Shown: piece after piece, positions 24,520 through 29,020 of the stretch
How positions within the stretch are numbered: position 1 is the stretch's first letter
Layout: every line of letters begins with the position of its first letter
Source of the DNA: Microcoleus sp.
GTDB taxonomy: Bacteria > Cyanobacteriota > Cyanobacteriia > Cyanobacteriales > Microcoleaceae
Assembly (NCBI GenBank): GCA_042408215.1
Contig: JAYFMW010000017.1
Location: 96,001-160,000, forward strand
Direction of reading: 5' to 3'
DNA: 64,000 nt
Position numbers and translations under genes: made by a program
The notes under the pieces: generated by a model
Seen by the model: only the letters and a program-made list of their open reading frames with translations
Databases searched by the model: none
Told to the model about the DNA's origin: nothing

Positions 24520-27500
24520 ATGAAATTTAATCAGTTTGTAGATGAACTCTCCCAACGAGGCGTAAAATTGTGGGCTGAGGGAAACCAGTTGCGCGTTCGC
24601 GCTCCTAAAGGAGTGCTGACCCCGGAGCTGCGTGACTTACTAACTGAGTACAAGGCAGAACTGCTTGCGTTGGTGCAACATAGCAACGCGATCGCAAGTG
24701 ATACTGACTTTCTCCTTGTACCTGTCTCGCGAGAGGGGAACTTGCCTCTATCTTTTGGCCAAGAGCGACTCTGGTTCTTGAACCAGATCGATCCGACTAA
24801 CCCCTCTTACAATGAATTCGCAGCTTTGCGCCTAAAGGGTTCCCTGAATGCCGAAGCGTTAGAGCGCAGTATAAACGAGATTATTCGCCGTCACGAAATA
24901 TGGCGTACCACGTTCCAGGAAGTTGACGGACAACCGATTCAGATTATCTCCTCAACCCTGAAGCTGGCAATGCCCCTTATAGACTTGCGGCAGTTTCCGA
25001 ATAACGAACGAGAGATTGAAATCCAACGATTAGCCACAGAGCTAATTCAGCCTCCCTTCGACCTAGCTGCTGGTCCCTTATTGCGCGTCCTGCTGTTGCA
25101 GATAGAGCGAGATGAACATATATTTATTATCAACGGACACCACATTGTGGGTGATGGTTGGTCATTAGGCATAATTTTTCGAGAGTTAGCAGCACTCTAC
25201 GAAGCCTTTTGTAGTAACAAGCCGTCACCTCTACCGGAACTGTCCCTACAGTACGCGGACTTCGCTCACTGGCAGCGGCGGTGGTTGCAGGGACTGACAC
25301 GATCGTCCTACTTAGCTTACTGGAAACAACAACTCCAAGGCACTCCCTCTGTGTTAGAACTGCCGACGGATCGACCGAGACCTGCTGTTCAAACTTTCCG
25401 GGGGGCGCATCAATCCATGCCACTCTCAAAAGAGCTGAGTGAGGCACTTGCTAACTTGAGCAAACGGGAAAACGTCAGCCTGTTTATGACGCTCCTAGCA
25501 GCATTCCAAATATTGCTATACCGCTATACAGGGCAAGCGGATATCTGCACAGGCACGCCGATTGCTAACCGCACTCGCCTTGAAATTGAAGGATTGATTG
25601 GATTTTTTGTCAACACACTCGTATTACGCACCGATCTCAGCGGGAACCCCAGATTCCTAGAATTACTGTTGCAAGTGCGGGAAGTTGCGCTGGGTGCTTA
25701 CGCTTATCAGGATTTACCCTTTGAACAGTTGGTGGAGGAATTGCAGCCGACGCGCTCCTTAAGTCATACGCCTTTGTTTTCGGTGATGTTTGTATTCCAC
25801 AATGTTCCTTTGATTCCCTCAGAACTTCCCGGTTTAACTGTCAGTCCATTTGAGGTGGAAACCTGCACAGCGAAGTTAGACTTAATCTTATCTTTTGAAA
25901 ACACCGACCGAGGACTAATCGGTTTATGGGAATACAACACCGATTTATTTGATGCCACCACGATCGCTCGCATGGCGGGGCATTTTCAAACTCTGCTAGA
26001 AGGGATTGTTGCCAACCCCAATCGAAGGCTGTCAGAGTTGCCCCCTGCTCACTGCTACCGAAAGACATCAGTTGCTAGTGGAATGGAACGATACAAAAAC
26101 CGAGTATCCCTCCGATAAGTGCGTCCACCAGCTATTTGAAGCGCAGGTGGAGCGTTTTCCTGATGCCGTGGCGGTGGTGTTTGAAGATAAGCAACTCACC
26201 TACCGCGAGTTGAACGCAAAATCCAATCAACTGGCGCACTATCTGCAAAAATTGGGTGTCAAACCGGAGGTACTGGTTGGCATCTATGTGGAGCGATCGC
26301 TTGAGATGGTGGTGGGGCTGCTGGCGATTCTCAAAGCCGGTGGGGCTTACGTGCCGCTAGATCCCGCCTATCCTAAAGAGCGCTTGGCTTATATGCTGGC
26401 GGATTCTCAGGTGCGGGTACTTTTGACACAGGAGAAGTTGTTAGATGAAATGCCTGAAAATAAAGCGCCTATTGTCTGTTTAGCTCCAGACTGGAATACT
26501 CTATCTCAAGAAACTGATGAAAATCCAGTCAGTCGTGTTAAGCCTGAAAACTTGGCTTATGTAATTTACACATCCGGTTCTACGGGTAAGCCAAAAGGAG
26601 TGATGGTTCAGCATGGCTCTATTTTAAATCTTTTAACAGGTCTCGAAAAAGCTATCTCTTTCCTTCGTCCCGATTCGGGCCTTCGAGTCAGCTTAAATGC
26701 TTCTTTAGCATTTGACGCTTCCGTTCAACAGCTCATCCATCTGCTGCGCGGTCGTACTCTTGACATCGTGCCTCAACCCCTCCGATATGATGGAAATGCT
26801 TTGTTATCCTACCTGCGGCAGCATCAGATAGACGTATTTGATACCACTCCATCCCAACTTAGACTTCTAATTTTGGCAGGATTGATTGGCGATAATACTG
26901 CTCCTAGCTCTGTGCTGGTTGGAGGAGAGCCTATTGATGAATCTACCTGGATTACTTTAGCACAAGCTGATAAGACTAATTTCTACAATGTTTATGGCCC
27001 GACAGAATGCACGGTGGATGCGACAGTAGCCAACCTAAAAATGGCTGGCTTAAAGCCAACTATTGGCCGTCCTCTAGCTAACACTCAGGTGTACATTCTA
27101 GACTCGCAACTCCAGGCAATTCCCATCGGCGTACAGGGAGAATTGTACATAGGCGGCGCTGGCGTAGCTCGAGGCTATCTCAACCGTCCAGAGTTGACAG
27201 AAGAAAAATTTATTCCTAACCCCTTTAGCGATGAACCAGGGGCACGCCTATACAAAACCGGCGATATTGCCCGCTATCTACCCGATGGCAATATAGAATA
27301 TCTCGGTCGCACCGATAATCAAGTGAAGGTGCGGGGCTTCCGCATCGAACTCGGAGAAATCGAATCCCTGTTGGCGCAACACCCCGATATACGCACAGCA
27401 GTCGTTATAGCAAGGGAAGACACACTCGGGGACAAGCGCCTTGTAGCTTATGTCGTCTCCAAGCTCATTCCAGATCGCATCCCTTATCAGAGTGAATGCC

Positions 27501-29020
27501 AACTAGAACTAGATGGCAACGCCCTCAAACTCCACACAGCGGATATCTCCACCGATGGTGTTGGTGTGGTGGGAGTGCCAGCGATCGATGAAGGGAGGAG
27601 CGTCCGCCTGCACATGCAACTACCTGAAGAGAGCTTCCCGCGCTGGCTTTCAGGGACAGTAGTTTGGTCGCGTCCCCCACACGCCGGGATTCGCTTTCAT
27701 CTGACGCCGAACGAACAGGCATTAGTTGACCAAACTGTATCACATTTGTTGGAAATTCAAGGCTTGTGGAAAACTTTGCAGCGCACCGTGACTCGCAACC
27801 TGCGGGACTACTTAAAACAAAAGCTGCCCGAATATATGATACCAAACGCTTTTGTGCTGATAAAAGCGTTACCGCTGACAGCGAATGGCAAGGTAGATCG
27901 GCGCTCCCTTCCGGCACTGAATACATCCCATCTCAGTCTAGAAACCACCAGCGTCCCACCTCGCAGCCACCTGGAAATGCAACTGGTGCAAATCTGGGAA
28001 ACTGTTCTGAATGTCTATCCCGTTGGAGTCCGGGACTGCTTCTTTGAACGCGGCGGTCATTCTCTTTTAGCTGTCCGCCTAATGGCTCAGATTCAGCAGC
28101 AATTCGGAAAATCTCTGCCCCTGGCAAGCCTTTTCCAGAACTCCACAATCGAACACCAGGCAAGTCTTCTGCTTCAGCAAACGGATTCCCAGCTATCCTC
28201 GCCCTTGGTAGCGATTCAGCCCGCTGGGACTCAGCCACCTTTCTTCTGCGTCCACCCCGTGGGTGGCAACGTCCTCTGCTATTTCGAGCTCGCCCGTCAT
28301 CTGGGTAAGGAGCAACCCTTTTACGGCTTGCAATCTGCCGGTTTAAATGGCGAACAGGAACCCAAAACCAGTATTGAGGATATGGCTGCTCACTATATTG
28401 AAGCCCTACAAGCCATTCAGCCATCTGGGCCTTACTATCTGGGAGGCTGGTCTTTGGGTGGCATTGTCGCTTTTGAGATGGCACAGCAGTTGCGCTTTCG
28501 GGGAGAAGAAGTCGCGCTCCTAGTGTTGATAGACAGCTATACACCGGCTGTTATTAACTGGTATGAGGACATGGATGAGGCTTCGCTGTTAGTTCATCTT
28601 GCCAGGGATATGGGGGGTCTGTTCGGTAAAGAGCTGCCTCTATCCATTGATGAATTGCAACAATTCCCACCAGAGGAGCAATTGAACTACATCCTAGAGC
28701 GCTCTAAAAATCTCAATATTTTGCCGCCCGAAGTCAGCTTAGAACAAATGCGCCACTTGATGCGGGTTTTCCAAGCTAACAGGGAAGCCATGTTGAGCTA
28801 CATCCCCCAGCCCTATCCGGGCAAAATTACCCTCTTGTCTGCTAGCGAGAAACCGCTGCAAGTAAAGCTTGACCCAACCCAAGGCTGGGGTGAATTAGCA
28901 ACTCACGGCTTATTAGATATCCAGCCAATTCCAGGCGACCACTACGCCATTCTCCGAGACCCCCACGTTCAGCTTTTAGCTCAACAGTTAGCAACTTACC
29001 TCAAGTCTGGGAATCAATAA
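24520..29020 (+). CDS. Single-module NRPS: TubC-N docking-C-A(PilZ-interrupted)-T-TE; apparent +1 frameshift at ~26041-26045
   Basis: TubC-N-like start; C motif HHIVGDGWS; A motifs YTSGSTGKPKG, YGPTE, YKTGD, RIELGEIE, NGKVDR; T GGHSL; TE GWSLGG..GDH. Deleting one C of CCCCC restores LSELPLLTATERHQLL. Confidence 0.92.

Follow-up and report, generated by a model that had tools for sequence, protein, structure and literature searches.

Does a nonribosomal peptide synthetase (NRPS) of Microcoleus sp. carry a receptor inside its adenylation (A) domain, and if so, what might a receptor do there? The question arises from a 64,000-nucleotide stretch of contig JAYFMW010000017.1 (positions 96,001–160,000 of the forward strand; hereafter the window, whose numbering is used throughout), in which a first-pass annotation, made from the letters alone, had read a PilZ-like insert between the core motifs A8 and A9 of an A domain and had proposed that cyclic di-GMP (c-di-GMP) or a protein partner could gate the enzyme through it. 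We found that this insert, 114 aa long (27458–27799, + strand), is a bona fide PilZ β-barrel nested in the a8-a9 loop of the mobile lobe of the A domain (Asub), with the A-domain motifs intact. Such nesting suggests that the NRPS may be switched directly by a second messenger or by a partner protein.

A PilZ barrel nested in the a8-a9 loop

The insert occupies residues 485–598 of an open reading frame (ORF) of 1004 aa and comprises a linker, a six-stranded barrel and a helix-kink-helix that leads into A9. Translation of 27308–27949 matched the first-pass reading exactly, with 114 aa lying between RLVAYVV and LRDYLKQKLPEYMIP. Upstream, core motif A8 (GRTDNQVKVRGFRIELGEIE; 27305–27364, +), which contains the hinge of the mobile Asub lobe, is followed by the Asub β-strand RLVAYVV (27437–27457, +), and this strand runs directly into the insert; downstream come A9 (LPEYMIP; 27824–27844, +) and A10 (NGKVDR; 27884–27901, +) with its catalytic Lys. 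By motif positions, A3, A4, A5, A6, A7, A8, A9 and A10 were all located and intact. A8 and A9 are 168 aa apart in the window A domain and 168–170 aa apart in 47 of 47 single-PilZ A domains of its relatives, whereas 43 A domains without PilZ, from 24 relatives, have a spacing of 61–67 aa (38 domains) or 73–88 aa (5 domains); compared with the ordinary spacing, the net extra length is thus ~103 aa. The A8-A9 interval, which the first-pass annotation had named as the usual site of interrupted A domains, is also where the accessible portions of PMC8341866 and PMC10510592 place embedded methyltransferases.

The PilZ identity was borne out by profile search, structure prediction and structure comparison. 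The insert alone matched the Pfam PilZ profile (PF07238), the sole Pfam family found in it, with 48.0 bits (E = 1.7e-12, cut-off 22.5; profile positions 7–91 of 102), and the match scored 43.2 bits in the whole ORF and 47.7 bits in a genome search; a profile match of this size is far beyond chance. An AlphaFold2 (AF2) model of the insert alone, built on an alignment of 47 homologues, showed six strands and a long C-terminal helix, with a mean predicted local distance difference test score (pLDDT) of 82. A model of Asub together with PilZ (27311–27940) reached a pLDDT of 91.3 and a predicted TM score (pTM) of 0.76, with the linker at ~91 and a helix-kink-helix running into A9. Using Foldseek against PDB, the insert model gave 28 matches at E ≤ 0.001, and the best of these were PilZ domains (BcsA, PDB 4xrn, MotI, Alg44, MapZ, PlzD, PlzA and YcgR), mostly solved with c-di-GMP bound (probability 1.00, TM up to 0.72 on target), while the Asub and PilZ model matched NRPS A domains and PilZ domains alike. 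Sequence searches of PDB returned no PilZ with the insert alone, for which the single match was an aminopeptidase (E = 0.11), and NRPS chains only with the whole insert alignment (47 homologues).

A conserved family with half of the RxxxR motif

In sequence comparison, PilZ-interrupted A domains (A-PilZ) are a conserved family, found mostly in filamentous cyanobacteria, and the window copy is not a one-off. Among the best 120 proteins listed in a search with residues 440–640, 96 had a precomputed PilZ hit, and BLAST and alignment placed the insert at the same position in all 96. Source names among the relatives included Microcoleus, Oscillatoria, Laspinema, Nostoc, Dolichospermum, Trichocoleus, Aerosakkonema and one Candidatus Marithrix, and the annotations of those listed were all generic. 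Ten representative clusters likewise bore generic names, with Laspinema as the one taxon indicated. A sample of cyanobacterial genomes gave a match at E ≤ 1e-8 in 21 of 401 genomes and 12 of 155 genera; within the window's own genus, 9 of 19 sampled genomes had one, besides the host genome (G000). When the insert alone was searched against 1.84 billion protein cluster representatives (50% identity), 115 proteins matched at E ≤ 0.001, 61 at 1e-10 and 6 at 1e-30; most were long synthetases, and about ten weak matches were small stand-alone or double PilZ proteins. Copy number rises in some genomes to five A-PilZ domains in one NRPS locus. Of 17 representatives with more than one A domain, 13 have one A domain interrupted and 3 have both (1 was uncalled by pattern), and the presence of exactly one interrupted A domain in 13/17 fits one gate per enzyme rather than tailoring or a general structural need.

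In relative P0124 (residues 661–1130), a 235-aa unit that runs from the second half of A8 through PilZ, A9 and A10 to the start of the peptidyl carrier protein (PCP) is duplicated in tandem; the two copies are identical at 162 of 235 positions, and the A10 Lys is changed to Thr in the second copy. The same duplication occurs in P0123 and at loci L014, L015, L024 and L029.

Does the insert keep the residues with which PilZ domains bind c-di-GMP? The earlier reading that DISTDG fits the [D/N]hSxxG motif (h, hydrophobic) and that RxxxR is half present, in KLIPDR, stands: DISTDG (D513–G518) lies at 27542–27559 (+), and R491, the sole remaining Arg of RxxxR, lies at 27476–27478 (+) in the Asub-PilZ linker SKLIPDRIPY. 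Its treatment of the half motif as something particular to the window copy had to be revised. We counted residues in 96 diverged PilZ units that start directly with the A-domain strand, taken from the cluster representatives of the insert-alone search. The two most conserved positions of the insert were the motif Gly (94/96) and the linker Arg (93/96); the motif Ser (84/96) and Asp (81/96, with Asn in 7 more) were also in the top tier, and h was hydrophobic in 96/96. At the first-Arg position of RxxxR, Leu predominated (61 units), as in the window (LIPDR), followed by Ile (10 units) and Phe (7 units), with an Arg in just 6 units, and a Pro stood two residues before the linker Arg in 51. Since the first Arg is almost always absent (90/96 units), these counts make the half RxxxR the conserved state of the whole family. 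An RTVTR stretch past the barrel was considered as an RxxxR and dropped, its second Arg being poorly kept among relatives. Outside both known PilZ motifs, Cys498 (27497–27499), in the first barrel strand, is Cys in 81/96 units.

Two PilZ units occur in 16 relatives of A-T-reductase type, and one of these, P0095, has three. The first unit of the tandem relatives resembles the window insert; the second carries [D/N]xSxxG, with the motif Ser changed to Gly in three relatives, and has a full RRxxxR in 14/16 and RHxxxR in the other two (P0074 and P0092). Binding in YcgR-like xPilZ-PilZ proteins is relegated to the linker ahead of a canonical PilZ, according to the accessible text of Galperin and Chou (bioRxiv 10.1101/814665), and the canonical second unit of the tandem relatives matches this logic. 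A FastTree tree of 144 PilZ units, with 18 label changes, was too noisy to order single against tandem forms and was left unused.

The insert is also kept across changes of substrate. Pocket residues, taken at motif-anchored positions with the numbering that follows GrsA, gave the code DAQDLGVVDK for the window A domain, which we take to be a Gln code. The syntenic gene of genome G388 has DLTKIGHVGK, G330 and P0003 have DVENIGAITK, and the family as a whole has at least 15 different codes. Compared with the G388 gene, identity was 72–100% through the condensation (C) domain and the first part of the A domain, 25–50% over ~240 residues, and again 70–98% through Asub, PilZ, the thiolation (T) domain and the thioesterase (TE). 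The divergent part, at ~26440–27160 (+; approximate limits drawn from sliding identity and pocket codes), is the substrate-selecting part of Acore, so that at the sequence level the comparison with G388 (locus L033) reveals a natural swap of the substrate-selecting subdomain, with the PilZ-bearing lid untouched. The insert was 92% identical to that of syntenic orthologues, against 54–57% for the whole Acore, and in the distant C-A-T-TE relatives P0038, a homologue from the cultured strain Oscillatoria nigro-viridis PCC 7112, and P0031 the best-kept region was Asub with PilZ (69–74%), compared with 45–46% for Acore, 43–44% for T and 31–32% for TE. The many pocket codes and the survival of the insert through a subdomain swap argue that it is no tailoring domain; Pfam shows PilZ only, and no tie to a particular substrate code was found.

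A possible ligand gate on the A-domain lid, and its rivals

What, then, might a PilZ barrel do on the lid of an A domain? Our preferred reading, which we hold tentatively, is that the insert is a regulatory sensor and not a tailoring domain, and that a nucleotide ligand, most likely c-di-GMP, gates the movement of Asub through it. The stronger form, in which binding of c-di-GMP, or of a nucleotide related to it, to the nested PilZ directly controls the lid and so turns the assembly line on or off post-translationally, is possible, if rather doubtful. Asub rotates by ~140 degrees between the adenylate-forming and thioester-forming states, and in YcgR- and PlzD-type proteins the equivalent ligand site lies in the inter-domain linker. 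Domain alternation, with an embedded domain moving rigidly with Asub, is described in the accessible part of PMC10510592. For the identity of the ligand, its binding and its effect on catalysis, we infer the following course: the nucleotide, most likely c-di-GMP, would bind where the Asub-PilZ linker with its conserved Arg meets the [D/N]hSxxG face of the barrel; it would order the linker and, in the manner of YcgR/PlzD or BcsA, hold the barrel in place on Asub or on an adjacent domain; the fixed barrel would favour or block the ~140-degree rotation between adenylation and thiolation; and the biased lid would gate loading of the last building block, by which the last module would be switched after translation.

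Several points weigh against a c-di-GMP gate. The canonical first Arg of RxxxR is Leu here and is Arg in just a handful of the related units, as counted above, and mutation of either Arg abolishes binding in the PilZ proteins studied; the conserved Gly and Arg could be structural, not ligand-contacting. The geometry of the clamp at the linker and barrel is hypothetical. Genomic context adds to these points: no GGDEF or EAL gene lies within the 64-kb window, the contig's closest GGDEF match is ~284 kb away, and of 12 A-PilZ loci in 10 related genomes (many on short contigs) one alone, G252:C17, has a GGDEF match within 20 kb, at ~10 kb, where the rough chance expectation is 1–2 loci, given 17–47 GGDEF matches per genome. 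By this test, which is weak because many contigs are short, GGDEF genes are unenriched near A-PilZ loci. In favour of the gate, Pfam detects just 2 PilZ domains in a host genome with 15 GGDEF matches: the window insert and one at L002 (G000:C28:144918–148166, − strand, 23 bits), which forms the end of a cellulose-synthase-like glycosyltransferase of family 2. A complex prediction with two inserts and two c-di-GMP molecules gave scores of 0.08 and 0.24 (mark, 0.42), which speak neither for nor against dimerisation.

The absence of the first Arg in 90/96 units and the lack of a GGDEF neighbourhood signal also speak for a ligand-free PilZ acting as a protein-protein interface, which would serve to dock a partner protein, a further module or a second copy of the synthetase, or to localize the enzyme within the cell. 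We consider this unlikely, while noting that it would agree with the 3/17 multi-A representatives that have PilZ in both A domains, with the loci that hold up to five copies, and with the presence of the non-binding PilZ structures 3dsg, 4fou and 7lkn among the Foldseek matches, lower in the list. Interface roles of this sort are known from non-binding PilZ proteins in the type IV pilus system. Non-binding proteins (Xanthomonas XC1028, the eponymous PilZ) resemble the window insert in their incomplete RxxxR; however, the known non-binding proteins have lost both motifs and part of the barrel, according to the accessible text of 10.1101/814665, whereas the window insert keeps [D/N]hSxxG and the linker Arg, which are the best-conserved features of the family, and is predicted to form the full six-strand barrel. 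Nor is any partner candidate kept beside the gene, the only neighbour common to the two congeners being a transporter of the major facilitator superfamily (MFS). A further alternative, which we regard as quite improbable, is that the altered half-site of the barrel accepts a different ligand in place of c-di-GMP (a guanine nucleotide, a different cyclic dinucleotide or a metabolite of the pathway), with the same mechanics. It would suit a site that is strictly kept yet off-canonical, with Leu, Ile or Phe for the first Arg in 78/96 units and the Pro before the linker Arg in about half of them, and the missing linkage to GGDEF genes; but we know of no PilZ domain that binds anything except c-di-GMP, and the second units of the tandem relatives are canonical.

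The insert might instead be a tolerated passenger without present function, which landed in a permissive loop and spread by module duplication and recombination. Large inserts are tolerated in the a8-a9 loop, as reported in the accessible portions of PMC8341866 and PMC10510592, and internal duplications of the Asub-PilZ unit were found here; against this, the insert is far better conserved between congeners than Acore, its motif positions are the most conserved of all, its length is fixed in the 47 single-PilZ A domains, and it persists with at least 15 pocket codes and in 12 of the 155 sampled genera, all of which makes the passenger explanation very improbable in our view. The single interruption in 13/17 representatives, the subdomain swap and the joint conservation of Asub and PilZ argue against tailoring and a neutral passenger alike.

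How does the nested PilZ compare with known systems? Other A domains interrupted at a8-a9, such as TioS with its embedded methyltransferase (PDB 5WMM; families surveyed in PMC8341866), likewise hold a foreign domain in Asub with the flanking motifs intact. The inserts of known interrupted A domains are enzymes working on the loaded substrate (methyltransferase, ketoreductase, oxidase, epimerase), whereas that of the window is a small, non-catalytic receptor fold that occurs with many substrate codes. BcsA and Alg44, which are among the best structural matches, likewise have a PilZ barrel in cis on a product- or polymer-making enzyme and are activated by c-di-GMP, and the host's other, cellulose-synthase-like PilZ protein is of this kind; their PilZ is terminal or separate and has the full RxxxR, while the window PilZ is nested in another domain and has the last Arg only. 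In xPilZ-PilZ proteins of YcgR/PlzD type, the ligand site lies in the linker between the N-terminal domain and the barrel (10.1101/814665, accessible text). The A-PilZ-PilZ tandem relatives have this layout, with a canonical second unit; in the window, by contrast, the N-terminal partner is the Asub lobe of the enzyme itself and the PilZ is single.

A literature search through the titles and abstracts of openly accessible papers found no paper on PilZ inside NRPS A domains. PilZ goes unmentioned in the accessible portion of the 2020 survey of interrupted A domains by Lundy, Mori and Garneau-Tsodikova (PMC8341866), as does the A-PilZ design in those of a Microcystis c-di-GMP census (PMC7063779), of the PilZ diversity preprint (10.1101/814665) and of a 2023 review of cyanobacterial c-di-GMP signalling (PMC10124867), the last of which describes cyanobacterial c-di-GMP receptors as poorly investigated. 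Interrupted A domains and PilZ-fused enzymes are each known, and their combination is, as far as we found, apparently undescribed. To our knowledge, assembly lines are controlled through transcription, MbtH-like helpers and phosphopantetheinylation. If the gating reading is true, a built-in second-messenger receptor would add a new control layer for assembly lines and a new output class for PilZ signalling, the family would constitute a regulatory class of interrupted A domain, spread across at least ~100 protein clusters, and the engineering of synthetases would gain a naturally evolved switch under ligand control. A set of orphan clusters is also marked out by the family, and the c-di-GMP state might explain why they are silent in culture.

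The gene cluster, its assembly and its surroundings

The cluster is a small, compact hybrid of polyketide synthase (PKS) and NRPS on the + strand, with the PilZ-bearing A domain in its terminal C-A-T-TE module. The upstream PKS (3395 aa; 14240–24427, +) has, by Pfam, an AprA-like loading region (AprA_N, winged helix and MT2-like methyltransferase) followed by KS-AT-DH-cMT-ER-KR-ACP. As assembled, the NRPS is in two ORFs: 24520–26118 (+), with a TubC_N docking domain (5.7e-18) and a condensation domain (4e-110), and its probable true continuation, the 1004-aa ORF at 26006–29020 (+), which covers the end of the C-A linker, the interrupted A domain, the PCP and the thioesterase (Pfam: AMP-binding 7.8e-91, AMP-binding_C, PilZ, PP-binding, Thioesterase 6.8e-36). 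Using Pfam and motif search, we found all four domains of the termination module with their catalytic motifs, including the phosphopantetheine site GGHSL of the PCP with its Ser (28052–28066, +) and the thioesterase nucleophile motif GWSLGG, a GxSxG (28445–28462, +), and from these motifs the module looks working, not decayed. Directly downstream lies the MFS transporter (29022–30329, +; Pfam, synteny), which is 94% identical to its G388 counterpart over the aligned 258 aa.

A +1 frameshift, in a run of five C at 26041–26045 (+), splits the C domain from the A domain. Removal of one C would leave a single frame of 1499 aa, matching the G388 orthologue in length, and two congeneric genomes have four C at the equivalent run and intact ORFs of 1523 and 1475 aa. 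Contigs of the public runs X1, X4 and X2 each have one base fewer at 26041; apart from that base, the contigs of X1 and X4, which belong to two different studies, show no difference from the window across 913 and 165 nt. Elsewhere in the window, petA (cytochrome f; 61876–62884, +) is in two overlapping ORFs, with a frameshift just past VVMLP, and the other frame continues with the expected EGFKIAP. Because the congeners and the three run contigs are without the extra base, and because the essential gene petA is frameshifted too, the C/A frameshift is probably an assembly indel error and the real gene a 1499-aa C-A(PilZ)-T-TE; on the same grounds a pseudogene is unlikely. Misassembly or a chimera was considered and rejected, given the same nested layout in 96 of the 120 listed relatives and a 526-nt X1 contig that spans 27273–27798 with 1 difference and takes in the upstream junction and the insert except its last base. 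Six RNA runs contained only 7–10% of the sampled words.

Upstream of the cluster, a 581-aa protein with sugar-binding repeats of the OAA lectin family (11838–13583, +) lies just before the PKS. A very large hybrid sensor kinase (AAA_16, GAF, PAS, HisKA, HATPase and receiver; 1–5991, +) and a separate response regulator (6438–7673, −) are located ~6.6 kb or farther upstream of the cluster. The DNA in between holds three ORFs with sigma-70 domains, at 8654–9055 and 9077–9943, which form a split pair of extracytoplasmic function (ECF) type, and at 10393–11505 (370 aa). In the ECF-type sigma factor (8654–9943, +), regions 2 and 4 are in frame and parted by a TAG at 9053–9055. This stop may represent a nonsense mutation or a sequencing error, or else mark two separate genes.

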